IMG/VR virus record: IMGVR_UViG_3300030376_002336
Coordinates: 1 to 51,694 of that record
Direction: 5' to 3' (one strand)
DNA: 51,694 bases
Source: a virus
Lineage: Duplodnaviria; Caudoviricetes
Below the pieces are notes generated by a model that was given only the letters and a program-made list of their open reading frames with translations, was not told where the DNA came from and made no database searches. Numbering within the stretch: the stretch's first letter is position 1; each line of letters begins with the position of its first letter. Both the position numbers and the translations under genes were made by a program. This document shows positions 1 through 33,789 of this stretch, in pieces.

Positions 1-3000
1 GAAGCAGCAGCAGATGTAGAAGATACTCTTAATAATATGGGTATAGAAGTGGAATTACCACAGACTAATAATACTCCAATGCTTAATGCTTTACTAGAAA
101 GAAAATATAGAAAGTATGCTGCAAGTGCTGCTATAATGGGTGACCCAGTATTATCTTTTGAGAAATGGAGAAATACAGAAGAAGGAATTAATTTGCAAAA
201 TGGTTTTAATGCAGTTAAAAAAATCTGGGCTGCTGGTGGAATGACCAATAATCCTGATACTCAACAACCAGAGTATGTAAGCCCTTTAAGTAGGGAGCAA
301 ATACTATCAGAAAATGGATTTCAAGAATGGTCACAAAGCAGAGAAACAATAGAAAGTCCTGATGTAAAAAGAGTATTAGATCAATTAAATCTTACGCTAG
401 CTGATATATTTATACAGCCAGATGTAGTAGGTGATGAAGGATCTGCAGTATTAGGTGACCAAAAGAAAAAAGTAAAATTAAAAGGATCAACAGCTGCTAT
501 TATTCAAATTGATACAGTAGATATAAATACAGGAGAAGCAGTTACATATTATAAGGTTACTGACTTGCAAGGAAATAATCTTTCTAAACAGTTGTTAGAC
601 TTTTTAACAGCAAAAAACAAGACTCACAGTTTTGGATCTTTTAGAACATTAGGTGCTGCTAAAGATGCATTTAAGATTATAGAAGCTACTGCACCAGACA
701 CAACAGTTTTTCCTTTTGATAATGTAGAAGGTTTGAGTCAAGGGATGATAGTTTATAAAGACAATGAACCATATATCATTTTAAGCAATCCTGGTGAGGC
801 AGCAAGAGGATATTTAAAAGTTATACCAGCTGCATTAAATACACCAAACAAAAAAGAATTAAAGAGCAATACTATTACTTTAAAAGAAGGAGAGTTTAAA
901 GGTGTATATGCTCCACAAAAATTAGACACTACAAGATTAAATGCTAATGTAGCAAGGATAGATGTTAATGAACCTATAACACCATATAAAGCAGTTAATG
1001 AAGGAGAAGGTTCTGGATCAAATGGAACTGCAGAAGCAAGATACAATGTTATTATATCAGCATTATCAAAAGATGATTTAGCAAACTTAGAGTACGTTAT
1101 CACTGTACCTGAGAATAGTGGAGAAGTAAGTACTAGACAATTTAGTATAGTAGGTAAAGATGGTCAAACATATTTGTCACCTAACCCACTTATAAGACTT
1201 GCAACAAGTAAGTATCAAATAGGGATAAGAGTTAAAGATCCAGCTGCACAAGAAAAAATATATCAAGCATTAACAAAAGCTAATCTAGCTCCTAACACTA
1301 ATCCAGGAGGTTTCTTTGCATTCTTAAATAATCAGTATGTTGTAATGGAAGACATGCAGGGTAACCCTGTAGATCCACGTAGTATGACTGAAGAGCAAAT
1401 GCTTAATACTATATATCCAGGCGGTGTACAAAACATGTCTAATAAAGAGCTGTTAGATCTAGTTCATAATAACTTTGCATTAAATGCTTTAATAGTAAAT
1501 GAATTAGACTCATTAAACTTGACAGTTGAAAGTGAGCCATATGTATTTGAAAAAGGCTTTGGTAAGTTTGGACTTAAAGTACAAGGTGGTAGAGTAGCTT
1601 ATCCAAAAGGAGCACAAGCAGCAAGAAGTGTAAATGATTTAATGTTTACTGACTCAGATTTAAATGGTGGTGTTCTTATATATGATATGAAGTATGATGA
1701 GAACACTGGAAAAAGAACTGTTCAAACTGTAACTAATTTAGAAGGTGATGCACAAGCTAGATTAAGAGCAGATGTAAAACAGGGCCTTTTAGAGCAAGGG
1801 TTATACAATCAAATGTTAAATGGTACTGATAGATATTATGTAATTATCAAACTACCTAATGGTACTTATGCACCTGTAAATGTTAAATCTAATAGACTTA
1901 CTACTCTTGAGATAAGTGAATTATATAATGAGGTTATTGAGAGAGCTCAATTAACTTTAAAAGATAATGCTAAAGGAGAAGATGTTTTATTTAATGATAA
2001 ATGGAATGAAGACTTAGGCAATAGATTATTTATAAGTAATAAGCCAGGTTATATTATTGACTTAGAGGTAAGCCCTTATGGTAAACCACAGTTTGTACTA
2101 AAAAAGAAATTAGGCAAAGATAATATTGAAGAGATTGCTAGAGTTGAGTTAGATAAAGATAAAGTAAGAGATAAAGAGTTATCTTCAGATCAAAAGATTC
2201 AGTCTCTTATTAATGACTTTAATAATGATGAAGCGGTAAAAGGAGAAGCAGTAAAAATTTCAGCAGGTAATTTAAGACAATCATTTGCAGATGGTGCACC
2301 AGTAGAAGAAATACTAGCAAAAACCAGCACTTCTGTTTTACCTAATGTTATTGAACAACAAAAATTAAGAGTAACTGCTGATGCAGTAGCTATAGAAGCT
2401 TCAAAACAAATTGCATTTATTAATCCTACAAAACCAGAAGATGTTAAACCTCAACCAAATCCTACTAATGAAGAATTAGGAGATGCAGGTTTAGAAGGGT
2501 TAACAGATGAGGAGTTTGAAGAATTAGTATCTGAAGATTTTGAAAGTGTTAATAATGAATTTTTACAACCTGTAGTTAACAAACTACTAAGAGGTATAGA
2601 TTTAAATACTAGAGAGCAAGCTGTGTTTAAAGCTTTAGAGTCTAAGATAGAGCTATTAGTTTTAAATCAAGGAGGTAGAAATAGTTTGGCAGAAGCAACA
2701 GAAGTTGTAGAGAGCCCTTTACAAAGAGCTAAAGATGAATTAGATCTATATAAAGAAGAATTACTTGAGGGTGTTCCTTTTAAACAACATGCTAAAACAT
2801 TAAAAGCAAGTAAAGAATATCAAAGACTGCTTAAGAATTACAAAGACTTAGCAAGGATTGCTAATAAAATATTAGAATCAAGTAGAACTCCACAAGAAGT
2901 TGAAGACATTGATACATTTATTGATTGGGCAAGAGTTAATTTACCTGATTATATTTCTGTTGAAAGTTTGCAAAACCTACAAGATAACTTCCAAAGTACT

Positions 3001-6000
3001 AACCAGCGTGTGGGTGCCTTTATGTTAAACATGAGTCACATAGGTAATGGTGTTGAGGGAACTATTTTTACAAGTGCCGTTTCACCATTTAAATATCATG
3101 AGGCTTTCCATGGTGTATTTAGAATGTTACTTACTCAAGAAGAGATAGTAAAATACCGTTCTATAGCTAGAAAAGAAGTTAGAGCTAAGCTTAGAGCAGA
3201 AGGTAAAAGCTTTAAAAAAGAATTAGAAATATTCAGAAACTCAGCTAGTACATATACTAATATGACTGAGAAGGAATTACAAAATGAATATTATGAAGAG
3301 TACCTTGCAGATGAGTTTGAGAAGTTTAAGATGGACCCAAAGAGCACTAATGTGGATGCTGAAGTTAAGTCTTTGTTCACTAGATTTATTGAATGGATTA
3401 AATCTTTATTCAATAATGTTGCACAAGACGAGCTTCAAATCTTATTTAAGAACATTGATTCTGGGAAATACCAACAAGCACAAGTAGCTAAAAATGAATT
3501 TACTGCAGCTCTGAATGCTGGCCCTATAGTAGCTAATGCATTATTACCATATAGTAGTGAGCAGGTTCAGGATGCAACAGGTAGAGTAAGAACTGGAGTA
3601 CTATATCTAAATAGTGATATAGCAAACCCTATGATAGGAAGCATGGCTGCAATGTTCTTATCTAGAGTAAGACAAATAGAAGGTGAGTATAATCCTAAAG
3701 AAGTATTAGATACATTAATTGAAGACTTCCAAAACTTATACAATCCTAGAAATCCTTCTAATGAATCATTAACAGAAGAACAACTTGCAGAGTTAGAGTC
3801 TATCCAGGATGCATTTAACATTTATCCAGAAGAAATAACTAAAGCTGTTGTAGCACAATTAAATACTATTGGAACACAAGTTGATGAAGAGCAATTTACA
3901 ATGGATGAGTTTGAAGATTCTACAGGAATTAGAACAACTACTCAATATGGTAAAGATGCATCATTGTCTGGTGGTTTTAATTCTTTATCTACTTTCCTAA
4001 GAGGCTATATAGCTACAACTAACCTTGAAGCTAATGAGCAAGGTGAGGTTATGGATTTATATGGTAACGTTAGTTTAGAGAGTTCTGATCAAAGATTTGA
4101 CAATCAACCATTAATTATTCCGGTAGATGCACAGTATGCATATAACGCATTACTTAAGGCTGTTAAAAATACAGAAGATACTAAACAAATTTTAGAACAG
4201 ATGTATGCATTTGGAGTTGATAACCCACATGCAGGTGCAGTAGTTAATAGAATTTTAAACCAAGCAGGTATAAGTCCTGAGACACTATTAAGTAATGATC
4301 CATTACCAACTAACTTTGTAATGAAAGATCCTGGCTTCTTGCAAGCAGTAATAAAAGGATTCCAAAACTATAGAGTTAACTACATATTTAATGAAAGAGA
4401 TGAATATGGTAATGTAAGAGTATATTCAGCTGCACAAAGAGATGATATAAATGCTCAATTAGATAAATGGAATCAAGCCTTTATAAGCAAGAAGAAAAGA
4501 TTTAATGACCCTAAAGTAGAAAATCAAATAGAAGTATTACTAGACGGGTTAAGTGATTTGCTATCATCTAAAAAGGCAATAACAAATAAACTGCTTTCTA
4601 AAAAAGCTAATCAATATTCTATAGACTTATTTAACTTGACAGGTATTAAGTTAAGTCCTTTATATATACGCTTTAGTGCACTACAAGACAAACCAACATC
4701 TGTACTAAATGTATCTCAAGCTAGTTTAGTTAGAAATAATGCTGATCAAAAAGGTATAAATAGAGTTGGTATTAATCCTACTGCACAAACAGGACAAGAA
4801 TATGTAACTACAGTAGAACAATTAAGACTTGCTATCCAAACAGGTGCAAATATTTTTAGCACACGTAAAGATGGTATGGCTTCTAGATTATATGAATTGT
4901 CACAAAACAATGCTGCATTTGATGAAACTGTAGGTGCTTCAGTATTTAAAAATCCTAATGGTGATTTAGTATACTCACATCAATTACCTACCTATCACTT
5001 AAAACAAATAAAAGCTTTAAATAACTCTAGCACTTTTGATCAGTTAATACTTGATGATCCTTATTTAGCTAATAACTATTTATTAAATAGCTCAGCTTTT
5101 AGAAACATGTCTAATAAAAACATGATAATTGTTTCTAGAGTAGCCGGAAGTAAATTAGGTAGAGAGTTAACATCAGAAGAAGATTTAAATGATTCTATAA
5201 GTGGTATTAAGTCTACCTCAACTTATGGTGACTTTACTGCTCAAGAGTTTGCAATCAATATGATAAACAACTACACTGCTTTCTTTAATACTAAAAGCAA
5301 TAAAGTAGACCGAGTAGTAGATGCAGAAGGTAATGAAGTAGCTATTGCTCCAGTTCTTATTAGAGTAATGGAAGCTTCTAATACTGGAGACACAATAGGA
5401 TTGCCAGTAATTAAAGCTGTTGAGACAGTAAATGGTGAAGTAGTTATAACTGATACAGCAGTTAATATAGTTGTTAATGAAATTGCAACAGAGTTTGACA
5501 GAATAGTAAGAGAAGGATTAGAACTAAATAATGAATCAAGAAATATAATTGCAGGTTATAATCAGAATGAAAATGGTAGAGCATTTAAATTCCAAAATAA
5601 TAGACTTTCTATTTCTGAAAAACTTAAACAAGATCTAATTGCAGTTGCCTTAGAACAAACTAAAGCTGGTGAGACTATAACTTTAGAGAAGGCATTATCT
5701 TTAATAGATAGCAATATGGCTGCTGTCAGAAAAGAAATAAGAGATAATATTGAAATACAATTTGATGAATTCCAGGATACATTAGATGAGTTAAATGTAA
5801 GAGATCAATTATCTAAATATATTAAAGATGGTTTAACAATAGGACAAGGTGTAGCAAGAAAAGAAACTCTTAAGTCTGCACAACTTCTTAATTTAAATTA
5901 TTTAGAAGAACATAATCTTAAACAAATTTTTATTAATGACTATATAAATACAATATCTATAAACCAAGTGTTATTAGGTGATGAAGCAATGTCATTAAAA

Positions 6001-9000
6001 GATCCTATTGATCAAGTTAAAAGAGCTAAGATGCAGAATGCAGCATATTACAATGCATACAGTTCTTTTTCTGCACCACTACTAGGTGTTCAACACAATG
6101 TAGAAGATATATCTTTAATCACTTTTGAAGAGCCACAGGGTGTTTCAAGCATTACTGGTAATCCAATAGATAAAGCGGATGCTCAGATGTATATAACTAC
6201 TAAGGCATTTAGATACATGAGGTTTGGTTTTGGTAAACTAACTGAAGCGGAAGCTAAACTTATTGATGCTATTGAAAGTGGTCAAACATTACCTGAAGGA
6301 ACATATGATTTAGCTAATAAAATATTTGGTAATGAGCAAGCACCTGTAGGACTAGCAGCTGAACAGAAGTTATTAAACTCTAAAAAATTAGTTTATGGAG
6401 ATGGTAAGACATTCTTAAAGATGTCTGCTTTTGTATTAACTCCTCAGTATACTTCAAACTGGGATGCTGTAAGTGAGCAATGGGTTGCTAAACCTAATAG
6501 AGTAGAACTCCATAACTTAAGAGTTAAACTAGAAGCAATAGAAAAAGGCAAAGAAACTATTAGTATAGCTGCTCCTGTTTCTGCATCTAAAATGATGAAA
6601 CAGAGAATTAATAATATTGAACAGCTTAGAAATACTAATGAGTTTACAGAGGGAGTTACAACGCTAGATGCTAGGAACATGGGTCTACAAGTTCTAAACC
6701 CTAGTAACAAACTAGACATTATAGATCCTACACAGATTAAAGAAATCTTAACAGCAGAACAAGATGATAGTGTATTTGTAGAAGGATTGGGTATGACTGT
6801 TGGTGAAATAAGAAAAGCATATAATGATGCTGTGTCAAAAAGAGTAGAGTTAAAGTTTAAAAATAGAAGAAACTTAATATTTACATTAGGTACAGCACTA
6901 GATGAATTAGCAGTTTCAAGTGAGTCAGGAATGATTACTCCTAATCTTGAGGCATTCTTACAATATGCTATGAATAGTCTTAAGGCTTCACAGTCTAATG
7001 AAACACTTATAGATTTCTTTTCATCAACAAACGGAATACAAAACTATGATCTTAATAATCCAATAACAGTAAAGAAGTTTGAGCAATTATTCTTAAGCTA
7101 CTTTAGTAAAGGTACTTTATCAGAAAGAGCACCAGGGGTTTCATTAACATTAGTATCTGACTTTGGCAATAATGTATATAGAAGAGTATATGAAGTAGAT
7201 GCAAATGGAGTACCAGTAAGATCTGAGGTAATTAGAGAAAAAGTATTTGAAAAGAATCCTGAACCTTTAGTTGAACTTGACTCATTAGTTGAAGGAGAAC
7301 ATAATGGTGTGGTTGTATTAGATAGATTAAGAACCGGGTTGATGGAATATACAAACCCTAAAGACAAGAGTACTGCTACAGGTCAGAGATACACAGAATT
7401 CATGATGCCTGCTCATCACAAAGAAGTAATGGAGCTGGTAGAAGATGGCAGCATGTCAATGCCAGAAGCAATAAGTAAATTATTTGGAGTAAGAATTCCT
7501 ACTCAAGATAATCATTCTGCTATAGCTATGAAACTAGTAGACTTTATGCCTGCTTACTATGGATCTAGTGCAATGTTTTCACAAGAACTAGTAGAAGTAT
7601 CAGGAGCAGATTTTGATATTGATAAAGTGTTTGCATTAATAAAAGAGTTTTATGTTAAAGACGGAAAGTTTGTAGAGTATAAACAAGAAGGTAACTATGA
7701 TGAATACTTTAGATACATAAATGAAAGAGTAGTAAAATCAGGAAGTGTTTATGCTGAAGCAGCAAACCTATGGGATGAAGAATCATCTGCATCTAAAACT
7801 CCTATAACTCTTTCTGAAGAGAATAGTGTTACTGATGCTGGGTTAAGTGAAAGAGGTTTACAAGCCTTAAAAGTATTAGGTCTTCCTATAACTAAAGCAC
7901 AGTACAAATTATATGTAGCTAAACACGGTGTTCCTTATGATGCACCACTAAATAATAAACTTGTAGATCTTAAGTATGCTTTAGTATCTAACAAAGGTGT
8001 AACTGAAAACAAAGATGGAGTTCCTATTTCTTATGAGTCAGCAAATACTGATGTATTAAATGATTTATTAGTTGAGTTAGCAAATGAATCACAGTACTTT
8101 AAAGATAAGTTAGAAGAAAATGTATCAGACATTAATAACTTAAACGGTAAGATACTTGCTTTTAAAGCTAATAAAGGTGCATCTATTGGTGCGTTTGTAT
8201 TGCCTAACTTGTATTTAAGTTTATTAACTGAATATAAAGCTACTTTAAAATCTCCAGTTAGAGTTAATGGTAAGTCTTATGCCAAATACGGAGTTACAGT
8301 AATGGAGAGTGGTGATAGAAAACAAGATATTAATTCTTCTTTAGTTACTGCAGCAACAGATAATGCTAAAGACCGTTTAATAGGTAAGTTTGGTTTAAAT
8401 AGAAATGCAGCTTCTGTATTAATGAATATGATTGCTTTAGGTATTCCATTAAAGACGGGAGTATTACTTCTTAATAATCCAAAAATACAAGAGCTTTATG
8501 ATACAGCCATAAACAAAAATGATCAGTTTGATGCAGGTATTATTTCTTTAGTTGATGCTGAGATAGGAGATTCCAAAGATAAAGCTATGGTAACAGATAA
8601 AATGTTATTAGGAGCTATAAATGGTGAAACAGTAAATGAAACAGCTATCTTAAAGTTGTTTAAGAAAGTCTTAGGGATTACTCAATTTACAGGTAACATG
8701 GGAGCTGTAACTGGACTTACTAAAGGATTAGGTAAAAGTATTGTAGATGTAAATACAAAAGCAGAAAGCATTGAGAAACTAATGAGCAAAGAGGCTCCAA
8801 TAGATTTATATAATATTTATAAAGGAAAAACATTCCAGAATACATATTTAAAAATCTTCTATCAAATTAAAGAAAAACTTCTACCTAGCACTTTCTTAAC
8901 AGCTAGTCCAGAGTTTAATAAAATATCCAATGAAGTATTTGCACAACTTGGTGTAGATAGTATAGAGTTTACAGAAGAAGTAAAAGACAAAGTTAGATTA

Positions 9001-10398
9001 GACATTTTATCTTACTTAACTATTAAGGCATATGATAATCATATGATGAATAATAATAGTAGAAAGGTAGCTACACTAAATAATCAGTTGTTATATCCAT
9101 CACAAGATAGTGAGTCTATTGTAGATGTAGCAGAAAGATTATTAGAATGGGCAGAGATTAATGATCCTAACAACTTCTTTATTATGAATTTCTTAGATAT
9201 TACTAAGTCTGATAATATAGATAACTCAAGCGGTTTAAATTTAGCTATGGCTAATACGTTTAGAAACATTAGCTCCTCTCAAAAATTAGATTTAGTAAAT
9301 GACTTTAATAAATTATATACTAATGTGCAGACTAAAGATGATGCACAAGCAGTAATAAATTATATAATGGTTAAAGATGGATTGCAGTTAGGGTATGGTT
9401 CATTATTATCAGCTATAGCACCACAAGTATTAAATGATTATTTAAATGAAGTTGAGTCAGTAAGAAAGACTTTGGAAGGTGAGATAACATTTGATACTAC
9501 ATTTGGTATGACTAGAGATGAATTACTAGAAGAATTTAAGGAAGGATATTTATCATCTAATATCACTGGTCCACTATTAGTAAACTATAGTAGAAGTGAG
9601 ATTCAACAGTTGCCAAAGAATGTACGTTTAAAAGGAAATGTTTTAACTGTTACATATAAATTAGATCAAGAAGTAAAAGATTACATTAGAATTGCTAATG
9701 AATCAGAGCTTGGAGGTACAACATATAAAACATATAAAATAGACCCTGATCAAACAGCATTAAGTAGAACATATAGTGAGATTGAAACTCTTGGTTCTAA
9801 TCAACAAACACCAATTGGTTTTATGTTTAACACTGCAGAATTTAATAGACCTACTTATAAAGATAATAGAGCATATGTAAAAACTAAAAACGGTCAAACT
9901 ACACAAGACAGGTTGATTGATAATATAGGTATTCCTGATGCAAGGCTTGTAGAAGATGCGTTACAAAGTGAAGACAATAATATTGAAGCAACTGATAAGG
10001 GTATAGAAGTTAATGGTATTAATGTAGCAGATACAGATGCTTTATTAAAAGGGTTATTAGATAATAGTCAAGATGTAGAAGATCAGGTTATTGCTGCTAA
10101 TAATCTAGAAGATGTAGAGAACAACTTACCAAATATAGATGTAAATGAGCAAGGGCAATATGCAATATTTTTTGAGGAAGCTACTGATGAATCAGCACAA
10201 TTTCCTTATCTTTCTAATGGTTATGATATGCTAATGAGTAATAACCTTAACAAGCCAATCATGCTTGAAAACAATTTGTTTCCGTTAAGTAAGATGATTG
10301 CAGAATATAATGATAACTTTGTCAAAGATTCATCTAAGACAGAACAAGAAAATCAAGAAGCATTTTTAGATCAATTAAAATGTTTAGGTTTAAAATAA
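1..10398 (+). CDS. Giant virion-packaged RNA polymerase (crAss-like, two-barrel) with zincin-like domain; probably 5'-truncated by the window
   Basis: Catalytic motif SGADFDIDK (DFDID at 7609-7623) preceded by GVRIPTQ. HEAFH (HExxH) at 3097-3111 followed by EEYLADEF. Length over 3450 aa. Frame is open from position 1 (EAAADVEDTLNN before Met at 37). Confidence 0.9.
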   Translation, partial: EAAADVEDTLNNMGIEVELPQTNNTPMLNALLERKYRKYAASAAIMGDPVLSFEKWRNTEEGINLQNGFNAVKKIWAAGGMTNNPDTQQPEYVSPLSREQILSENGFQEWSQSRETIESPDVKRVLDQLNLTLADIFIQPDVVGDEGSAVLGDQKKKVKLKGSTAAIIQIDTVDINTGEAVTYYKVTDLQGNNLSKQLLDFLTAKNKTHSFGSFRTLGAAKDAFKIIEATAPDTTVFPFDNVEGLSQGMIVYKDNEPYIILSNPGEAARGYLKVIPAALNTPNKKELKSNTITLKEGEFKGVYAPQKLDTTRLNANVARIDVNEPITPYKAVNEGEGSGSNGTAEARYNVIISALSKDDLANLEYVITVPENSGEVSTRQFSIVGKDGQTYLSPNPLIRLATSKYQIGIRVKDPAAQEKIYQALTKANLAPNTNPGGFFAFLNNQYVVMEDMQGNPVDPRSMTEEQMLNTIYPGGVQNMSNKELLDLVHNNFALNALIVNELDSLNLTVESEPYVFEKGFGKFGLKVQGGRVAYPKGAQAARSVNDLMFTDSDLNGGVLIYDMKYDENTGKRTVQTVTNLEGDAQARLRADVKQGLLEQGLYNQMLNGTDRYYVIIKLPNGTYAPVNVKSNRLTTLEISELYNEVIERAQLTLKDNAKGEDVLFNDKWNEDLGNRLFISNKPGYIIDLEVSPYGKPQFVLKKKLGKDNIEEIARVELDKDKVRDKELSSDQKIQSLINDFNNDEAVKGEAVKISAGNLRQSFADGAPVEEILAKTSTSVLPNVIEQQKLRVTADAVAIEASKQIAFINPTKPEDVKPQPNPTNEELGDAGLEGLTDEEFEELVSEDFESVNNEFLQPVVNKLLRGIDLNTREQAVFKALESKIELLVLNQGGRNSLAEATEVVESPLQRAKDELDLYKEELLEGVPFKQHAKTLKASKEYQRLLKNYKDLARIANKILESSRTPQEVEDIDTFIDWARVNLPDYISVESLQNLQDNFQSTNQRVGAFMLNMSHIGNGVEGTIFTSAVSPFKYHEAFHGVFRMLLTQEEIVKYRSIARKEVRAKLRAEGKSFKKELEIFRNSASTYTNMTEKELQNEYYEEYLADEFEKFKMDPKSTNVDAEVKSLFTRFIEWIKSLFNNVAQDELQILFKNIDSGKYQQAQVAKNEFTAALNAGPIVANALLPYSSEQVQDATGRVRTGVLYLNSDIANPMIGSMAAMFLSRVRQIEGEYNPKEVLDTLIEDFQNLYNPRNPSNESLTEEQLAELESIQDAFNIYPEEITKAVVAQLNTIGTQVDEEQFTMDEFEDSTGIRTTTQYGKDASLSGGFNSLSTFLRGYIATTNLEANEQGEVMDLYGNVSLESSDQRFDNQPLIIPVDAQYAYNALLKAVKNTEDTKQILEQMYAFGVDNPHAGAVVNRILNQAGISPETLLSNDPLPTNFVMKDPGFLQAVIKGFQNYRVNYIFNERDEYGNVRVYSAAQRDDINAQLDKWNQAFISKKKRFNDPKVENQIEVLLDGLSDLLSSKKAITNKLLSKKANQYSIDLFNLTGIKLSPLYIRFSALQDKPTSVLNVSQASLVRNNADQKGINRVGINPTAQTGQEYVTTVEQLRLAIQTGANIFSTRKDGMASRLYELSQNNAAFDETVGASVFKNPNGDLVYSHQLPTYHLKQIKALNNSSTFDQLILDDPYLANNYLLNSSAFRNMSNKNMIIVSRVAGSKLGRELTSEEDLNDSISGIKSTSTYGDFTAQEFAINMINNYTAFFNTKSNKVDRVVDAEGNEVAIAPVLIRVMEASNTGDTIGLPVIKAVETVNGEVVITDTAVNIVVNEIATEFDRIVREGLELNNESRNIIAGYNQNENGRAFKFQNNRLSISEKLKQDLIAVALEQTKAGETITLEKALSLIDSNMAAVRKEIRDNIEIQFDEFQDTLDELNVRDQLSKYIKDGLTIGQGVARKETLKSAQLLNLNYLEEHNLKQIFINDYINTISINQVLLGDEAMSLKDPIDQVKRAKMQNAAYYNAYSSFSAPLLGVQHNVEDISLITFEEPQGVSSITGNPIDKADAQMYITTKAFRYMRFGFGKLTEAEAKLIDAIESGQTLPEGTYDLANKIFGNEQAPVGLAAEQKLLNSKKLVYGDGKTFLKMSAFVLTPQYTSNWDAVSEQWVAKPNRVELHNLRVKLEAIEKGKETISIAAPVSASKMMKQRINNIEQLRNTNEFTEGVTTLDARNMGLQVLNPSNKLDIIDPTQIKEILTAEQDDSVFVEGLGMTVGEIRKAYNDAVSKRVELKFKNRRNLIFTLGTALDELAVSSESGMITPNLEAFLQYAMNSLKASQSNETLIDFFSSTNGIQNYDLNNPITVKKFEQLFLSYFSKGTLSERAPGVSLTLVSDFGNNVYRRVYEVDANGVPVRSEVIREKVFEKNPEPLVELDSLVEGEHNGVVVLDRLRTGLMEYTNPKDKSTATGQRYTEFMMPAHHKEVMELVEDGSMSMPEAISKLFGVRIPTQDNHSAIAMKLVDFMPAYYGSSAMFSQELVEVSGADFDIDKVFALIKEFYVKDGKFVEYKQEGNYDEYFRYINERVVKSGSVYAEAANLWDEESSASKTPITLSEENSVTDAGLSERGLQALKVLGLPITKAQYKLYVAKHGVPYDAPLNNKLVDLKYALVSNKGVTENKDGVPISYESANTDVLNDLLVELANESQYFKDKLEENVSDINNLNGKILAFKANKGASIGAFVLPNLYLSLLTEYKATLKSPVRVNGKSYAKYGVTVMESGDRKQDINSSLVTAATDNAKDRLIGKFGLNRNAASVLMNMIALGIPLKTGVLLLNNPKIQELYDTAINKNDQFDAGIISLVDAEIGDSKDKAMVTDKMLLGAINGETVNETAILKLFKKVLGITQFTGNMGAVTGLTKGLGKSIVDVNTKAESIEKLMSKEAPIDLYNIYKGKTFQNTYLKIFYQIKEKLLPSTFLTASPEFNKISNEVFAQLGVDSIEFTEEVKDKVRLDILSYLTIKAYDNHMMNNNSRKVATLNNQLLYPSQDSESIVDVAERLLEWAEINDPNNFFIMNFLDITKSDNIDNSSGLNLAMANTFRNISSSQKLDLVNDFNKLYTNVQTKDDAQAVINYIMVKDGLQLGYGSLLSAIAPQVLNDYLNEVESVRKTLEGEITFDTTFGMTRDELLEEFKEGYLSSNITGPLLVNYSRSEIQQLPKNVRLKGNVLTVTYKLDQEVKDYIRIANESELGGTTYKTYKIDPDQTALSRTYSEIETLGSNQQTPIGFMFNTAEFNRPTYKDNRAYVKTKNGQTTQDRLIDNIGIPDARLVEDALQSEDNNIEATDKGIEVNGINVADTDALLKGLLDNSQDVEDQVIAANNLEDVENNLPNIDVNEQGQYAIFFEEATDESAQFPYLSNGYDMLMSNNLNKPIMLENNLFPLSKMIAEYNDNFVKDSSKTEQENQEAFLDQLKCLGLK

Positions 10399-10405
10399 TA
10401 TAGAT

Positions 10406-13400
10406 ATGGCAAGATGTCCAAATAAAAATACTGCAGAGTATAAAGCATTACAAGATGTATTTCAAACAGAAGTACAAACTAATAATGTTATAAATACATG
10501 GCAAGATATTAATAACTCAGATAAATTTCCTACTCCGGTAGAAGCTACTGAAATGATTAAAGAACAAAAAGTAGCTTTTGCATTAAAGCAAAAAGAGTTT
10601 GCTGTTAGTCTATTAGATAATTTGCGTAGAGAAAAAATTGGACATACTTATCAAGGACAGTTTCTTATAAATCATTCTAATCCACAAACCAGAGAGTTTG
10701 ATGCAATGTTTCTAGATGCAAATGTAAAAAGATTATATAGATACTTAAGAATAAACAATATACCAGCAGACACTATTACATTACAAAAAACTCCTATGAC
10801 ATATAGGTTGATTGTTAATGATGATATGTTTACTAACAAAGATATAATTGAGTCATCAAGATCATGGGATACTAATAGATCTAGAGAAGTGGTAATGCAT
10901 TTGAAGAGAATGTTTCCACAAGTTAATGTACAAATGTTAAGTGTATCTAAAGCAGCAGAGATGTTTGCTAACTTCCCAGACTGGAAGAAAAGTAATGTCA
11001 AGTTTAAAGATGTAAAATCTTTCTACGTTGACGGTACTGCATACTTAATTAAAGGTAGAGTTACTGACGAGACAGCAATTGAAGAAATGCTACACCCAAT
11101 TGTAGATGCAATTAAAGTAGATAATGCAGAGTTGTTTAATGGTTTATTAGCAGAAGCTAGTAAATCTTTTCCTGAAATGGTTCAACAAATTAAAGCTGAG
11201 TATAATCAAAACACTAGAAACTTTAGTGATACTGAAAGAGATCTAGAGATTGTTACTCAAGCCCTAACAAGACATTTTAAAAAGGAATATGAAACACAAC
11301 CTACTAAAGGATTCTTAGATAGGGTAAATGAAATGATGGAGTGGTTTATGAATCTTATTGATAATCTAAGTCAATATTTAACTGGTAGACCTTTATCTGT
11401 TAGAGATATAAATCCAAGCGGTAACTTAAGTGATATTGCTAAACTTCTTAATACAGAAGGGATACAGTTTAAATTAGAGAGTAGAGCCAATGGTAAAATA
11501 AGATTTAGTCTTTCTCCTGAAAAGAAAAAACAAGTTGATCAGGCTTTGTCTGAAGCTAATGGTGTTCAAGCGGAAGTAATTAAAAGCTTATTCCATGTAG
11601 CTAACTCATCAGAAGTTGAGGTCAACTCATTATCTGGTAGTAGATTTAAAACTGATGAAGAAATAAACAGAAAAGATACAGGAGATACTATAGTAATTCT
11701 AAATGAAGAAGACCATACATATTATGATATAACTGATGGTGAACAGTATACATCAGTTACTACAGCAATTAAAGGTACACTTAAAAATCAAGAAGATGTA
11801 CAGTTAAATTTAGATATTGGTAATGATGTAGATGCTTTATTAGATGCATTAGTAACTCACCGTAGTGTGGAAGATGTGTTTGATAAAATGAAAATTGTAG
11901 ATCTAGAGACTGCTAAATCTGTTTATAATACACTAGAAACTACATTGTCTAATATAATGCCAGAAGGATCTATAGCACTATCACAAGTTGTAGTGTTTGA
12001 TAAACAAACTAAAATGGCTGGTACAGCTGATTTAGTAATTATAGATAAGAATGGTTTTATTAAAATTGTAGATTTAAAGACTACAAAAAATTCATTGAAG
12101 TCTTTTACTACAGAAGATACAAAGGTGGGCAGAAAGCAAACCAAATACTATGATAAACAATGGGCCCTAAATGAAGATAGTTTATTAAAACAAGCAGGGA
12201 TAGATAAATTATCTACTAGAGGTCAACATAACCTACAAGTAAATATCTATAGAAGAATGTTCCAAAACATGGGCTATGATGTATACCAGGGAGATTATGC
12301 TGCTTCTACTTTTCATTTAGTTGCTGACATTAGTGGTAAAGGAAAGAACCAAAAGTTCAATGGTACTATCAAGTCTGATCAATGGGTAGATCATCCTATA
12401 TCTCAAAACATAGATATGGTAAACATGTTGGTTCCAATTAATCCTGACTCAGCAAAAGCAGATCAGCTTGATGAGTTGACTAAGGATATGGAAGATAAAC
12501 TTATGGATCCTGATATTACTCCAGCTGATGTAATACAAGAGGATGAAAACACAGCTGAAACTGTTACACCAAGACCAGAGCAACCAGCATATGATGCTAT
12601 AAGTGGGGTGCTAAAGGACTATCAATTATCACTGGTAAATAAGATAGATCTATTAGAGGCAAAAGGAATAGCTAAAGCATCTATATTTATAGACAGAACC
12701 AAAGATGAAGCTATAGAGCAACTTGCTTCTACTATTGCTTTTATTAATATTGCTATGTCTGAAGGGCCTATAGCAAGATCAACAGCATACTCTGAGTTAT
12801 TACAAGACTCATTAAGACAAATAAGAAAGTTTAGTAAATATATTCAAGATCCAAAAAACTTTGCTAAGCCAGAATACATCACTTATGTATTAAACTTTGA
12901 TAAATATATAAAGACATTCCAAGGATTACATAGTATAGAATCAACGGCAGAATTAAATGCTACCCAAAGATCTTTAATTCTTTCTTTAAAAATAGAGCTC
13001 AATAAATTAACAGGTGGTAGTACAGAAAATGGTGGTTTAATAAATGATGCAATTGATAGTTATGTAAAAGAAGTTATTAGACTTAAGTCTAGTAGAGATT
13101 TTGGAGGTGAAGGGAGTTACTTTAGTGAGGCAGACTTAGAATTATTATTAAAGGAAGAATATGATATAGCTTCTGCTGATTTATATACTAGAGATATGGC
13201 TACACAAGGTGATACTATTCTAGCCTTAATGGATAAAATATATAAAGCAAAAAAACAAGAACTATTAGATAAAGTTGCAGTAAGAGAAAGCACTATTAAA
13301 GCTGCAGGTAATAAGATAATTAAGCTGACTCCTAATGCTAACCGTAGTACTGCATATAATTACATGTTAGTCTTTGATGAAAATGGAGAGTTTACAGGAA

Positions 13401-16195
13401 ACTATGTTAAAAAGATTGGCCAACAATACTACAACAAACAAGAAGAATTGAGAGGTGTGTTATATGATAATGATGGTACACCATATCAGTATGAAGAAAT
13501 ATTACAGTCTGATCTAGAAGAGTTGATGAAGACTAAGGAAGGACGTGCAAAAATAGAATACAATAAAGATCTTGCAGAAAAGAAAGCTAGGTTTAGTGAA
13601 TTCTTTAGAGCAGAAAGAACAACAGATGGTCAGTATGATACAGGAGAATATCATACATATACTCAAGAGTTTATGGATGCCAGAGATAAAATGGAATATT
13701 ATGTTCCTGGTAAAGATGGAAGTCCGTTTGGTAACTGGTATAGAAAGCCACGTGTGTCTGATGTTGCATATGCCAAATATGAAGCAAAGTATTACAAAGT
13801 AAATGAATATACTAAAGCAGTAAGAGTGGATGGTCAGCCTACTGGAGCTATAGTAGCTGGTCAAACATACCGCTCACCAAAAGTTAAGTATAGAGTAGCA
13901 TTAGAAAAAACAAATCCAGTACAAGGTTTATCTATAGATATGACTAGCTCACAGTACAGGAGTATTATGAACCCTACTGATGCACTAGGAGTAGCACAAA
14001 AAGAGTTCTATCAGCTGTATGTACAGTATTTTGAAGATGAGCTTCTTGCAAAGCTACCACAGAATACAAAAAATAATATGCTAGGTAGAGTTCCTTTAGT
14101 GAGGAATGCTACTATAAATACAATGAAAAAAGAGTCTACTCTTTGGAATAAGCTATATGCTAGAACAGTTAGTAGTAAAGCATGGAATATGTTTAATCAA
14201 ACCTCAACACAAAAGGGTGTAATGGTTGATCCTATATCAGGTTATATAGTAGAGCAAATGCCTATCTTCTATACTGGTAGACCAAAGGTTGATGGTGAGA
14301 TGGAGCAAGTAGAAAAAGAAAAGAAAACTTTACAAGACAAGTTTAAAAAAGGAGAGATAACTCAAAACAAATATGACATAGATATAGCTGCTATTAATGG
14401 TAAGCTAGCTAGACTTAGATCAACTCCTAGTCAAGGAGAAATAAGTACTGACTTAGCAACTAGCTTAATTAAGTTTAGTGCAATGGCAGAAAACTATGAG
14501 ACAATGGGAACCATTGATGATACTTTAAATGCTATGCTTCAAGTAATAGAAAAAAGAGCATATAAACCATCAAAGACATCAGGTCTTGGTTTTGTAGATA
14601 AAGTAAAAGGAGCTGTAGGTATTACACCTAAGAGTAAATATGCTAAGAATGATAACACTATAAGAAGAGCTCAGAAGTGGATGAGCATGGTTTACTATGA
14701 TAATGAAAACATAACCAAAGGTGCAGCAGATAAAATAGCTGAAGGTATTATACAACTATCATCTTTATCCTATGTAGCATTTAACCCTTTTGGTAACTTT
14801 AATAACTACTTGATTGGTAGAGTAAACAATAACATAGAATTACTAGCAGGTAGATTTGTAAGTAGAGAAGCACAGCTAAGAGCAACAAGAGAGTTTAATA
14901 AAAGAGCACTTCCAGATTTAGTTTCAAGAACAGGAGCTGCATTAAAAGATGCAACAGATGTTTTAACATTAGGTAAAATACCAGGTTTAAAGTCTGCTGA
15001 GTATGATCCAAAGAGAGCTAATAGTAAGTATGAGGCTTTTGTTGATATGTTTAGAATGATGGATAAAATGTCTGAGCTACGTGAACAAGGTGCAGATACA
15101 TCAGAAGGTAAGACGTGGTTTGAAAGAGCATCTGAATGGGGTTATGTAATGCAAGATGCAGCAGAATACAATGTACAAACTAAGATGGGTATGGCTGTAT
15201 TAATGGATACCACATTAAAGAATAGTGCAACAGGTGAGACATTATCCTTATATGATGCTTTTACATATGATGCTGCGTCTCATACAAACAAAATTAAAGA
15301 TGGCTATGATACAGTTGTACTTAAGAATGGAAAAGAGACACCTTACACTGATGAGTTTAGATATGAGCTAAGAAATAAAATTAGAGAAATTAACAAACAA
15401 ATCCATGGTAACTATGCTAGAGATGATAGAATGGTTTTACAACAAAGAACACTAGGTAAGCTAGCTGTTCAGTTTAAAAAGTGGGTGGCACCAGCTATTA
15501 GAGCAAGATACCAAAGAGAATACTTTGATGAAAATCTAGGATGGATGGAAGGAAGGTATAGATCAGCTATGCAATTCTTTAATTATATGGGTCAGCAAAT
15601 TAAAAAAGGTAACATGGAGTTTAGTACTTATGGAAAAGGCTTTATGGAAAGTAGAGAAGGATATGATGGTACTGGAGGTAATGCAGATCAGCGTGCACAG
15701 AATAAACTTTATGGGTTTTATAGAACTATGGGTGAGATAGCTATAATGTCAAGTGCATTATTAATAAACTCTATCTTAAGTAATTTGCTAGCAGGTGAGG
15801 GAGATGACACTGACTTAGAGAGAAGAATGAAAAACTTGACTAAGTATCAAGTAAACAGACTGTACAAAGAGATGGTATTATTTATGCCTTGGTTCCCAGA
15901 TGGTGGTAAACAAGTGTTCCAGCAATTTGGTAATCCTGTTGCAGCCACAAGAACTTTTGGTGAGTTATCTGAACTATTAGGAATGACAATGGTGACAGGA
16001 TACAAAGGTTTAAAACTTAAGTCTGGTTTAATTGATGAAGATGAATTCTATTTAGATAGTAGTATAGTATATCAAAGAGGTAAGAAAAGAGGAGAGCTAA
16101 AATTATATAAAAACTTTAAAGATGTTTTCCCTATAGTATATAGTATACAAAAATGGGAGTCATATTTAACTAATGATGATTTCTACATAAAATAA
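10406..16195 (+). CDS. Large virion (ejected) protein with degenerate zincin-like segment and PD-(D/E)xK nuclease domain
   Basis: 1929 aa directly after the vRNAP. EEMLH at 11081-11095. AGTADLVIIDKNGFIKIVDLKT...QHNLQVNIY matches a RecB/Cas4-like nuclease motif set. Confidence 0.75.
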   Translation: MARCPNKNTAEYKALQDVFQTEVQTNNVINTWQDINNSDKFPTPVEATEMIKEQKVAFALKQKEFAVSLLDNLRREKIGHTYQGQFLINHSNPQTREFDAMFLDANVKRLYRYLRINNIPADTITLQKTPMTYRLIVNDDMFTNKDIIESSRSWDTNRSREVVMHLKRMFPQVNVQMLSVSKAAEMFANFPDWKKSNVKFKDVKSFYVDGTAYLIKGRVTDETAIEEMLHPIVDAIKVDNAELFNGLLAEASKSFPEMVQQIKAEYNQNTRNFSDTERDLEIVTQALTRHFKKEYETQPTKGFLDRVNEMMEWFMNLIDNLSQYLTGRPLSVRDINPSGNLSDIAKLLNTEGIQFKLESRANGKIRFSLSPEKKKQVDQALSEANGVQAEVIKSLFHVANSSEVEVNSLSGSRFKTDEEINRKDTGDTIVILNEEDHTYYDITDGEQYTSVTTAIKGTLKNQEDVQLNLDIGNDVDALLDALVTHRSVEDVFDKMKIVDLETAKSVYNTLETTLSNIMPEGSIALSQVVVFDKQTKMAGTADLVIIDKNGFIKIVDLKTTKNSLKSFTTEDTKVGRKQTKYYDKQWALNEDSLLKQAGIDKLSTRGQHNLQVNIYRRMFQNMGYDVYQGDYAASTFHLVADISGKGKNQKFNGTIKSDQWVDHPISQNIDMVNMLVPINPDSAKADQLDELTKDMEDKLMDPDITPADVIQEDENTAETVTPRPEQPAYDAISGVLKDYQLSLVNKIDLLEAKGIAKASIFIDRTKDEAIEQLASTIAFINIAMSEGPIARSTAYSELLQDSLRQIRKFSKYIQDPKNFAKPEYITYVLNFDKYIKTFQGLHSIESTAELNATQRSLILSLKIELNKLTGGSTENGGLINDAIDSYVKEVIRLKSSRDFGGEGSYFSEADLELLLKEEYDIASADLYTRDMATQGDTILALMDKIYKAKKQELLDKVAVRESTIKAAGNKIIKLTPNANRSTAYNYMLVFDENGEFTGNYVKKIGQQYYNKQEELRGVLYDNDGTPYQYEEILQSDLEELMKTKEGRAKIEYNKDLAEKKARFSEFFRAERTTDGQYDTGEYHTYTQEFMDARDKMEYYVPGKDGSPFGNWYRKPRVSDVAYAKYEAKYYKVNEYTKAVRVDGQPTGAIVAGQTYRSPKVKYRVALEKTNPVQGLSIDMTSSQYRSIMNPTDALGVAQKEFYQLYVQYFEDELLAKLPQNTKNNMLGRVPLVRNATINTMKKESTLWNKLYARTVSSKAWNMFNQTSTQKGVMVDPISGYIVEQMPIFYTGRPKVDGEMEQVEKEKKTLQDKFKKGEITQNKYDIDIAAINGKLARLRSTPSQGEISTDLATSLIKFSAMAENYETMGTIDDTLNAMLQVIEKRAYKPSKTSGLGFVDKVKGAVGITPKSKYAKNDNTIRRAQKWMSMVYYDNENITKGAADKIAEGIIQLSSLSYVAFNPFGNFNNYLIGRVNNNIELLAGRFVSREAQLRATREFNKRALPDLVSRTGAALKDATDVLTLGKIPGLKSAEYDPKRANSKYEAFVDMFRMMDKMSELREQGADTSEGKTWFERASEWGYVMQDAAEYNVQTKMGMAVLMDTTLKNSATGETLSLYDAFTYDAASHTNKIKDGYDTVVLKNGKETPYTDEFRYELRNKIREINKQIHGNYARDDRMVLQQRTLGKLAVQFKKWVAPAIRARYQREYFDENLGWMEGRYRSAMQFFNYMGQQIKKGNMEFSTYGKGFMESREGYDGTGGNADQRAQNKLYGFYRTMGEIAIMSSALLINSILSNLLAGEGDDTDLERRMKNLTKYQVNRLYKEMVLFMPWFPDGGKQVFQQFGNPVAATRTFGELSELLGMTMVTGYKGLKLKSGLIDEDEFYLDSSIVYQRGKKRGELKLYKNFKDVFPIVYSIQKWESYLTNDDFYIK

Positions 16196-16298: not shown

Positions 16299-17552
16299 AT
16301 GAAAAATTACTTAGTATGGCTGGTCTTCATTTTTCTATTACCTACTAATTCTTATAGTCAACTTATATCTGATCCTTTATCAGACAAAGAGACTAAGAAA
16401 CTTAGACAAGGTTTTCAGAGTAAACAATTTTTTAAAGGTCTATACAATGACTTTTTAAAATACGGAACTATTTATGCAGCTGGTGATATAAACAATTCAG
16501 TAGAAGCTGATGAGCCAACTTACTTTGTTAGAACTAATCCCAATGGTTCTTTATATTCTATTCCTGAAGTAATAGATGTTACTGAAAAATTTCCTTTTGA
16601 TTATAGATATGGTTTTGGTATACGTAAACTTGCAAGGTTTGGTTATGAAAGAAAGCCTAGAAACTACTATGATGGTACAGAAGATCAATTGGCTTTTTCT
16701 GCACCAACCTCTGCTCTTAAAGGTTTAGAATATCAATTTCATTTTGAGAGAGAAAGATGGAGAGGTGAGTTATTTCAAAATCATAGATTCTTTTTAAAGC
16801 ATACAGGTAAATATAATATAGTTAAGGTTGAGTCAAGAGAAGTAGGTAAAATTAATTTAGCTTACCAGTCTGCTGAAGCAAGACTAAGATTGCCTTTAGG
16901 TAAGAAAGATAAGTTTAGTATATCAGCTGGTGTAATCTACCGTACTCATGAGCGTGCTTATGGATATAACCCAATTGAAATATGGTTGAATGAGCAGGAT
17001 GAGGATGGCTTTGCAGTAAACCCATGGTACACTTTAGGCTTTGAATATGGTTATGATGACATCTTTTATACAGAGGAAGACCAGAATGGGAACGAAGTAT
17101 CTGATTGGTATTGGATTGATGCTGAAGGAAATAGAGTTGCAGATACAGACTTAGAGTTTAGAGAAACAGTATTTAGAGAGTTGATGCAAAGATTTAATAG
17201 AGAAGCATGGGACTTATTAGATCCTTTTGGTGAGATTGCACCAATTGTAGGAATGGATTTTTATCATTATAAGAGTAATTTTTGGATACATGCATATGCA
17301 AACTATATATTACCTTATCATAAATATATAAAAGGAGATGAAGAAGTATCTTATTTAAATAGAAACAACTGGGGTAAAGGCGGTCTAATCCAAGACTCTG
17401 AACTAGAGCAGTGGAGTGATTACTCTTTTGGTGCAAACTTTGGCTGGAAGATTAATAAAAACCTAGGTGTATTTATAGAAGGAGAATATGCAAAGATGTG
17501 GGATAGTGAACTATTCAATACATCTTTTGGACTTAATTATACAATTAAATAA
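16299..17552 (+). CDS. Secreted, probable outer-membrane beta-barrel protein
   Basis: N-terminal signal peptide (MKNYLVWLVFIFLLPTNSYS-Q), alternating aromatic beta strands, C-terminal FNTSFGLNYTIK resembling a beta-signal. Confidence 0.6.
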   Translation: MKNYLVWLVFIFLLPTNSYSQLISDPLSDKETKKLRQGFQSKQFFKGLYNDFLKYGTIYAAGDINNSVEADEPTYFVRTNPNGSLYSIPEVIDVTEKFPFDYRYGFGIRKLARFGYERKPRNYYDGTEDQLAFSAPTSALKGLEYQFHFERERWRGELFQNHRFFLKHTGKYNIVKVESREVGKINLAYQSAEARLRLPLGKKDKFSISAGVIYRTHERAYGYNPIEIWLNEQDEDGFAVNPWYTLGFEYGYDDIFYTEEDQNGNEVSDWYWIDAEGNRVADTDLEFRETVFRELMQRFNREAWDLLDPFGEIAPIVGMDFYHYKSNFWIHAYANYILPYHKYIKGDEEVSYLNRNNWGKGGLIQDSELEQWSDYSFGANFGWKINKNLGVFIEGEYAKMWDSELFNTSFGLNYTIK

Positions 17553-17853: not shown

Positions 17854-18270
17854 ATGAAAAGAATCTTATTGTTCATTCTAGCACTGTTTATTACAACAAC
17901 GATACAAGGCCAAGAGTGGCTAAGTGATGATAGTTTTGAAGATGCTATTAGTGGTCAGTCAGGTTTTGATGATAATGAAAACATTGTTGTTGTAGAATTT
18001 TGGGCTGAGTTTAATAAAGACAATGCTTTTTTAGAGTGGGAGAGAGTTGCAAAAATTGATGGTGTAAGATATTACAGAGCCAACATAGCAGTTTGTCCTG
18101 AGCTAAAAGATAAGTTTAGAATTAGAATGGTCCCTACCATACTTATATTTGCTGGAGGGGACGCATTCATAAAATTCAAAGCTAAGGCAGGACTTGATCT
18201 TGTTTGTCCTGTTGATTATCCTAAACTAGTTAGAGCTATAGAAGTAGTTAAAGAAGAAGCAAGCTTCTAA
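17854..18270 (+). CDS. Secreted thioredoxin-fold protein lacking CxxC
   Basis: Signal peptide, VVVEFWAEFN in place of WCxxC, cis-Pro motif RMVPTILIF. Confidence 0.7.
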   Translation: MKRILLFILALFITTTIQGQEWLSDDSFEDAISGQSGFDDNENIVVVEFWAEFNKDNAFLEWERVAKIDGVRYYRANIAVCPELKDKFRIRMVPTILIFAGGDAFIKFKAKAGLDLVCPVDYPKLVRAIEVVKEEASF

Positions 18271-23707: not shown

Positions 23708-24037
23708 TATTAACAATTAAAAGTTAGAAAAAATAAAGATGGGAAATAAAAAACGTATGCATAGTTATGCTAAAGCTGGTGGTCTTATGGGCTATACTAA
23801 AGGTGGTAGTGTTTTAGATGAAAAACAATTAGGTGGAATAGCTAAAGTTGTTAAGCCTTTTGTAAAGAAAGCTGCAAATAAAATAAAAAAAATCTATACA
23901 GACTTTAAAGGAACAACTTATGACCCAGACTTATTACAAAATACAGGATATGCTAGAAAAGTAGATCTTGAAAAGGGAATTAAAAATAGAAAACAATCAA
24001 CAGGATCAAATTAATATTAACAATTAAAAATTAGAAA
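23702..24037 (+). repeat. 29-bp direct repeat flanking ORF 23739-24014
   Basis: AATTAATATTAACAATTAAAA[G/A]TTAGAAA at 23702-23730 and 24009-24037 (one mismatch). Confidence 0.85.
23739..24014 (+). CDS. Small basic protein with xxGG motifs
   Basis: 91 aa; YAKAGG, YTKGG, KQLGG. Confidence 0.75.
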   Translation: MGNKKRMHSYAKAGGLMGYTKGGSVLDEKQLGGIAKVVKPFVKKAANKIKKIYTDFKGTTYDPDLLQNTGYARKVDLEKGIKNRKQSTGSN

Positions 24038-24039
24038 TT

Positions 24040-24354
24040 ATGCCTAATAATATGAAAAAAGCAGGAATGTCCTACAAAAAGGGAGGATCAAAAAAAATGC
24101 AAGCAGGAGGTGGATTCACCTATGGTGCAGGAGATGGAGATATAACTCCACAAAAAGCAAACATGGAATCAATGGCTAAAGGTGGAGGCTTAAAAGGTTT
24201 CATGAAAGGCGGAGGTGTCATGGATGGAATGATGGACAAAAAAATGAAATATGGTGGAAACAAAGGAGATATGAGAATGTCTGCTAAGAGAGACTATATG
24301 AAGTATGGTGGTAATAAAGGTGATATAAGAAGATCAGCTAAAAGAGATTACTAG
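24040..24354 (+). CDS. Small M/K/G-rich protein with internal repeats
   Basis: 104 aa; YKKGG, MQAGG, MAKGG, MKGGG, and MKYGG twice. Confidence 0.8.
   Translation: MPNNMKKAGMSYKKGGSKKMQAGGGFTYGAGDGDITPQKANMESMAKGGGLKGFMKGGGVMDGMMDKKMKYGGNKGDMRMSAKRDYMKYGGNKGDIRRSAKRDY
24244..24351 (+). repeat. In-frame 54-bp tandem duplication
   Basis: MKYGGNKGDMRMSAKRDY / MKYGGNKGDIRRSAKRDY, diverged mostly at synonymous sites. Confidence 0.85.
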
Positions 24355-33474: not shown

Positions 33475-33789
33475 ATGACAAAAAAAACTTATAGACCTCT
33501 GCCAGAGTATCTATCTATAGGTCCTTCTGACATACATGGTGCGGGTATCTTTGCTAAAGAAGATATTCCTGCAGGTATTGAAATTGGTATTACCCATGTT
33601 TACGATCCAGACTTTGAAGATGATCACATTAGGACACCACTGGGTGGATTCATCAACCACAGTGATAGACCTAATTGTGAAATAAAAGGGGATGAGACAG
33701 ATATAACCAGAAAACTTTTTACTCTACATAAAATAGAACAAGGTAAAGAACTAACAGCTAAGTACAATTGGTATGATCCTATTAGTTAA
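33475..33789 (+). CDS. Minimal SET-domain protein-lysine methyltransferase
   Basis: SET motifs SDIHGAGIFAKEDI, FINHSDRPNC and GKELTAKY. Confidence 0.88.
   Translation: MTKKTYRPLPEYLSIGPSDIHGAGIFAKEDIPAGIEIGITHVYDPDFEDDHIRTPLGGFINHSDRPNCEIKGDETDITRKLFTLHKIEQGKELTAKYNWYDPIS

Follow-up and report, generated by a model that had tools for sequence, protein, structure and literature searches.

The element studied here is a pair of cysteines (Cys) at the junction of two consecutive giant genes in IMG/VR record IMGVR_UViG_3300030376_002336 (Caudoviricetes). The 51,694-nucleotide (nt) stretch analyzed, hereafter the window, is all of the genome at hand. The first gene encodes the fusion of a gp47-type cargo protein and a crAss-type virion RNA polymerase (RNAP) and the second encodes another cargo protein; each product carries one Cys, and the two residues lie at the facing ends of the proteins. 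Such a Cys pair at cargo junctions is a real, order-wide feature of the Crassvirales. From sequence, and by analogy with Anabaena phage A-4L, in which the same signature is disulfide-bonded, we consider it probable that the two terminal Cys form an intermolecular head-to-tail disulfide. In fused relatives a peptide bond occupies this place, and the clasp likely substitutes for it. The junction comprises the following features, in which + and − positions of residues are counted from the N- and C-terminus, respectively:

1..10398, + strand: 3' part of the cargo gene for the gp47-type and crAss-type virion RNAP fusion, assigned by blastp to crAss001 gp47 and gp50
10186..10395, + strand: predicted C-terminal helical module of about 60-70 amino acids (aa) that ends in Cys, from an alignment of 52 relatives and AlphaFold2
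10381..10383, + strand: sole Cys codon (TGT) of the RNAP-bearing protein by translation, position −5, in ...KCLGLK
10406..16195, + strand: third cargo protein, gp49-type in its C-terminal half, 1,929 aa from the ATG at 10406, with a zincin-like EEMLH motif and a PD-(D/E)XK-like domain
10406..10600, + strand: predicted N-terminal helical module of about 65 aa that starts with Cys, consensus C-x-N-x-N...Y..L...I..WQ...P
10415..10417, + strand: sole Cys codon (TGT) of the third cargo protein by translation, position +4

The open frame of the first gene spans 1..10395 (+) and is closed by a stop codon at 10396-10398, while its 5' end lies outside the window. It encodes 3,465 aa within the window, where a sequence-only reading had given 3453. 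In locus L019, which is 99.1% identical to the window over 2,754 nt, the same open reading frame (ORF) begins 1,111 codons upstream. The additional 1,111 N-terminal residues read from L019 contain no Cys, so the complete protein would measure about 4,576 aa with one Cys; two smaller cargo-like genes further upstream in L019 (942 and 1,081 aa) are likewise Cys-free. GADFDIDK is found at aa 2535-2542 (DFDID at about 7609-7623), preceded by an RIP motif, and the DFDxD and R-x-P regions align with those of phi14:2, crAss001 and crAssphage. A zincin HEAFH motif is also present. The protein matches crAss001 gp50 in tblastn (E 2e-11), crAss001 gp47 matches its residues 1032-1161 in blastp, and all 60 tblastn matches belong to crAss-like or unclassified phages; no match to the RNAP protein was found in Pfam or PHROGs. 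Based on these motifs and matches, the first giant is a gp47-type plus RNAP fusion. The third cargo protein has its PD-(D/E)XK nuclease-like domain at aa 427-624 and is similar to crAss001 gp49, annotated as ‘RNA-polymerase subunit’ (tblastn E 4e-25; blastp over residues 1334-1874), as well as to the C-terminal part of crAssphage gp44. To judge from these similarities, the source phage is crAss-like and not N4-like. The gp47/gp50/gp49-type families are virion cargo in crAss001 (PMC10172136) and phi14:2 (bioRxiv 2020.03.07.982082), and by homology the virion likely contains both window giants and ejects them into the host cell.

The sequence-only reading had counted one Cys per giant at the facing termini and had proposed that Cys is otherwise purged from both. 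A computational count agreed on both points, placing the codons at 10381 and 10415. Over 5,394 aa the two proteins contain 2 Cys against 49.7 expected (binomial P 3e-19), the expectation being derived from the 34 other window genes counted (98 Cys in 10,645 aa, or 0.92%). None of these 34 genes encodes a Cys within its first 10 residues and two encode one within the last 10. The C-terminus of the third cargo protein is Cys-free.

Conservation of the pair, which the same reading had left to be checked, holds among the relatives. In a first set, all 15 junction-showing loci (of 16) carried it. A second set of 133 loci was then defined by the RNAP catalytic core alone and not by the Cys motif; three of these stop short of the RNAP end, leaving 130 to be scored. 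A Cys within the last 10 residues of the RNAP protein together with one within the first 10 of the next giant was present in 127 of the 130, corresponding to 64 of 67 clusters at 80% identity. Over the 275,584 interior residues of these RNAP proteins there are 16 Cys. Of the 59 clusters in which the end of the downstream giant is visible, 58 lack a C-terminal Cys there. The exceptions are individual: a GTG start places the Cys at +3 in L096; a break 180 codons before the RNAP end leaves the Cys on the last piece in L149; and in L066 the Cys lies at −62 and is followed by an inserted gene. Three further loci that appeared fused when read with table 15 (L067, L157 and L162) are ordinary split pairs under table 11.

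The position of the pair follows the way in which the cargo is divided. Describing the cargo as a chain of A (gp47-type), RNAP and C (gp49-type), we collected 19 named phage loci, of which 18 were readable. All 18 have a Cys pair at each break of the chain, three of them when a downstream in-frame Met is taken as the start. The only four Cys in the 5,398 aa of phi14:2 are located at −1/+3 and −2/+3 of its two junctions. In crAss001 they are found at gp47 −3 and gp50 +5, and at gp50 −9 and gp49 +5, with one interior Cys in gp50. Intestiviridae have the RNAP fused to C and carry only the pair between A and RNAP, whereas in Suoliviridae, Fpv3 and the window A is fused to the RNAP and only the pair between RNAP and C is present. 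Since the first cargo gene lies on the opposite strand in five phages (crAss001, cr128_1, DAC17, IAS and bajarodcaudo virus 1), gene adjacency does not account for the rule.

A wider set of 155 non-redundant loci (from L037-L329), sorted by length cut-offs, gave the same picture. The RNAP has an N-terminal Cys in 47/47 loci where it starts its own protein versus 4/33 classed as fused (six short pieces, two with Cys, were set aside), and a C-terminal Cys in 112/115 loci where it ends its own protein versus 3/35 classed as fused (two short pieces set aside). Of the seven Cys-bearing ‘fused’ cases, six are in fact long proteins that are not fused and have a visible neighbor with a Cys of its own; in the remaining one, L325, the upstream partner lies outside the locus. 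The fully fused proteins of L300 (5,642 aa, complete) and L209 (5,622 aa seen) contain no Cys. Breaks without Cys inside RNAP genes (L024, L036, L047, L075, L112, L127 and L191) look like introns or frameshifts. L307, L309 and L319 were dropped for want of an RNAP ORF. L035 (Bohxovirus sp.) was left out as well: it matches the RNAP core, yet tables 11, 15 and 4 all fail to yield a long cargo ORF, possibly as a result of another recoding or of many sequence errors.

Both termini are predicted to be small folded modules. The AlphaFold2 model of the C-terminal module (mean pLDDT 89) has five helices, the last of which (53-65) directly precedes Cys66; the Cys is present in 98% of the 52 aligned relatives at a mean column identity of 21%. 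That of the N-terminal module (mean pLDDT 85) consists of an extended, Cys-bearing arm followed by three helices, and C4, N6, Q33 and P42 are invariant in the 52 relatives. Its profile also matches the N-terminus of the cr111_1 RNAP protein (E 6e-7). Across relatives, the Cys lies between +2 and +8 at the N-terminus and between −1 and −9 at the C-terminus. Co-folding of the two termini, as the sequence-only reading had proposed, yielded a score of 0.40 versus 0.00 for the best of three controls, with at least 97% of contacts shared between runs and a partner pLDDT of at least 77. In the calibration, passes at 0.60 or under comprised 18 of 157 solved complexes and 2 of 215 mismatches, and because these two are both of the mismatches that passed, the support is weak. 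The model thus weakly suggests that the C-terminal module docks on the N-terminal one. A profile search for relatives of the modules in the PDB brought up none that was credible; the best match, a designed TPR protein (E 2e-4), was judged a helical look-alike. No relics of either module were found by profile inside fused proteins, seven ‘internal’ matches being residues 40-64 of N-termini.

Phage assembly takes place in the cytoplasm, which is a reducing compartment. The sequence-only reading had the two proteins covalently chained for packaging or threading in order. The purge and the conserved pair stand on strong evidence, and the bonded signature of A-4L makes the link likely, but the bond as the driver of packaging is doubtful because assembly occurs in this reducing setting; docking of the two helical modules is likelier for that step. 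We propose that module docking would set a 1:1 partnership during head filling, and that the disulfide would form after lysis, in an oxidizing setting. crAss001 virions contain other inter-subunit disulfides (PMC10172136), the timing of which is presumably also after lysis. During infection, the chain of the two proteins, which here amounts to about 6,500 residues, would follow the channel-forming cargo and travel through the tail N-terminus first as a single, partly unfolded thread, after which thiol reductases of the host cytoplasm would release the parts. N-to-C passage through the tail has been proposed for crAss001 gp45 (PMC10172136). All other Cys were likely lost because wrong bonds are thereby avoided. 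Whether ordered threading is the purpose of the bond is close to an even call, on which we lean slightly to the negative; fixed stoichiometry or particle stability could likewise explain selection for the clasp.

The terminal Cys may serve other ends. If each bonded to a copy of its own protein, to the portal or to a scaffold protein, the cargo would be anchored and not chained. One Cys per protein would suffice for this, and crAss001 does have disulfides of the symmetric inter-subunit kind (gp57 47-47) as well as others that link tail proteins (PMC10172136). We still regard anchoring as unlikely: the residues are gained and lost as C-plus-N pairs in step with cargo splitting and fusion, nearly all clusters in which the end of the last protein is visible show no Cys there, a fully fused protein needs none, and the bond of A-4L joins two different proteins (PMC12002296). 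A slightly smaller chance goes to purely non-covalent docking, in which the Cys would be buried contact residues that stay reduced. Both ends are indeed folded modules with other conserved residues, and many hosts are anaerobes. A plain contact would, however, accept Ala, Ser or Val, whereas Cys is the sole near-invariant residue of a C-terminal module that is otherwise so divergent, and distant clades retain it even though the sequences of their termini seem unrelated.

It is less probable again that the two Cys share a metal ion in a zinc-hook-like clasp. Such a site would function under the reducing conditions in which packaging occurs in the cytoplasm, but each side contributes one Cys, His does not exceed 13% in any column and no acidic column exceeds 79%; the lack of a conserved His in either module weighs against a metal site. 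Least credible of all is ligation chemistry (thioester or transpeptidation) that would yield a true polyprotein, even though fused and split forms interchange across the order. Such ligation normally requires a fixed terminal residue, whereas the Cys vary in distance from both ends and some are followed by long tails. The disulfide between the two cargo proteins is the reading that we favor.

Several observations weigh against this disulfide and the chain it would create. The loci share descent, so that the counts given above are not independent events and Fisher P values computed for the 155-locus comparison are too favorable. The purge is relaxed in gut phages (39 and 21 Cys in cr272_1, 15 in cr8_1), and the Cys is not always terminal: it is found at −32 in L170, −62 in L066, −68 in L232 and −72 in L191, and far from the end in L195 (−288) and L208 (−398). 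Unrelated genes occur between Cys-bearing partners at L102:13785-14525, L106:13451-13936, L171:8017-8517, L219:8902-9372 and L311:10618-11046; the interposed gene of L102 has its own Cys at +4. Co-folding returned no contacts and hence no Cys-Cys distance. The crAss001 maps resolved fragments of gp45 and not all cargo proteins (PMC10172136), and for crAss-like phages the clasp is a prediction from sequence. Purified phi14:2 gp66 was studied on its own and in dithiothreitol (DTT) (bioRxiv 2020.03.07.982082), which implies that in vitro the polymerase can do without the link. Finally, no CxxC oxidoreductase was recognized among the window proteins.

Additional splits of the cargo carry additional Cys. 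An 859-aa piece is split off in L098; it carries Cys at +3 and −1 and is similar to residues 2894-3139 of the first window protein. Extra links with Cys at both ends are also found in L109 (167 aa), L190 (1,167 aa), L210 (1,281 aa) and L016 (400 aa), and in L220, which has further ones of 92 and 345 aa. Two of these phages share a common 906-nt stretch (L016:11086-11989 and L220:7523-8426; 92% identity) despite being distant: their polymerases align in two short patches only, at 21% and 39%. The stretch consists of about 36 codons ending in Cys, a GIY-YIG-type gene (assigned to this family by eye, from its N-terminal motif, rather than through a library scan) and some 48 codons starting with Met-Ser-Cys. 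L015, a sister of L016 with an 83% identical RNAP, has an unsplit third protein, and the two L016 pieces flank approximately residues 370-400 of it. Judging by sequence, the 906-nt unit would be a mobile cassette which interrupts the third cargo gene and, unless it is spliced out of the RNA, supplies the clasp with both of its halves.

A second type of insertion at cargo junctions was observed at L066:13670-16134 and in L191, L195, L208 and L232. Here, a conserved tail of about 60 aa (..KGG.W..VKD.KG.P.H..GGV..) extends beyond the upstream Cys; next come a gene opening with an E.EG.EL motif and a new Cys-bearing start. Judging by this layout, this type may hitch passenger proteins onto the cargo.

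A broader proposal would take the Crassvirales clasp as a portable, post-translational stand-in for gene fusion. The RNAP cargo would thereby become a single thread of some 6,000-6,500 residues, the order of which is independent of gene order, and mobile elements would exploit the clasp, as when a GIY-YIG homing-endonuclease cassette splits an essential cargo gene and the pieces are rejoined by a disulfide. We offer this tentatively and judge it somewhat likelier to fail than to hold as a whole. If true, a cassette-borne clasp would be a route for harmless insertion beside introns and inteins.

crAss-like phages are among the most abundant gut viruses, and the ordered passage of several MDa of protein through a narrow tail is an open question; PMC10172136 looks for an answer in the way the cargo packs and interacts. 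The Cys rule points to specific residues and predicts joined protein partners in any genome. It may also aid annotation, as a gene break flanked by a Cys pair probably marks a true boundary between proteins and a break without one is likely an intron or a sequencing error.

Other window genes were noted in passing. Directly after the cargo genes, 16299-17552 (+) encodes a Cys-free protein of 417 aa with a signal-peptide-like start and an outer-membrane-like C-terminus; it has relatives in 21 fetched loci and no Pfam or PHROG match. The product of 17854-18270 (+) has a thioredoxin fold; it was weighed as a possible catalyst of the bond and dismissed, since WAEF replaces WCxxC, its start is signal-peptide-like and it occurs in only three fetched loci. 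At 23739-24354 (+) lie two small ORFs rich in Lys and Gly, in which K..GG motifs recur and for which no family matched. The window further encodes a small SET-domain protein at 33475-33789 (+; Pfam PF00856, E 2e-9) and a spore photoproduct lyase-like protein at 35648-36481 (−; PF20903, E 9e-16).

Among known systems, N4 was the comparison drawn in the sequence-only reading, on the ground that its virion RNAP is Cys-free. Cys is indeed suppressed in the giant ejected proteins of N4 and other Schitoviridae (N4 gp50-52, DEV gp71-73), which has been ascribed to passage through the periplasm (PMC11445570). These proteins have essentially zero Cys and no conserved terminal pair, unlike those of the window, and the Schitoviridae polymerase is described as fundamentally distinct (PMC13434306). 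Where N4-type virion RNAPs are T7-like single-subunit enzymes without Cys, the polymerase here has one conserved Cys and is of the crAss DFDxD type, which reduces the N4 comparison to an analogy. Homologous cargo with the same terminal Cys is found in crAss001 (gp47/gp50/gp49) and phi14:2 (gp65/gp66/gp67; PDB 6VR4), from which the window differs by the fusion of the first two proteins. The papers on these phages report fusions, expect cleavage and suggest that ejection order may depend on cargo interactions (PMC10172136; bioRxiv 2020.03.07.982082). By word search, the available text of neither mentions the terminal Cys (‘Cys’ has 0 occurrences in that of the latter), and ‘cysteine’ has 0 occurrences in that of PMC10136315. 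An order-wide rule, a polymerase-containing chain of up to four links and a clasp cassette were not found described in the literature searched, which lay mostly outside subscription journals.

The closest parallel is cyanopodophage A4 (Anabaena phage A-4L, Saffermanviridae). Cryo-electron microscopy (cryo-EM) revealed a disulfide between gp27 Cys1715 and gp26 Cys5, with the C-terminal helix of gp27 sitting in a cleft of gp26 and fixed by the bond (PMC12002296). In the genome record, Cys1715 (−3) is the only Cys of gp27 (1,717 aa) and Cys5 (+5) the only Cys of gp26 (1,114 aa). As in the window, adjacent genes for giant ejection proteins thus carry their sole Cys at the facing ends. The two systems differ in that A-4L has a single pair and no RNA polymerase and is unrelated in sequence to the crAss cargo: gp27 and gp26 gave no blastp match to it at E ≤ 0.01, and module profiles and phmmer returned nothing significant. 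In the view of its authors the bond stabilizes the ring, and they also write of a chain reaction upon ejection; the available text describes no split-or-fuse rule (PMC12002296). A-4L is one solved precedent for the chemistry, which lowers the novelty of the bond in crAss-like phages and raises our confidence in it.

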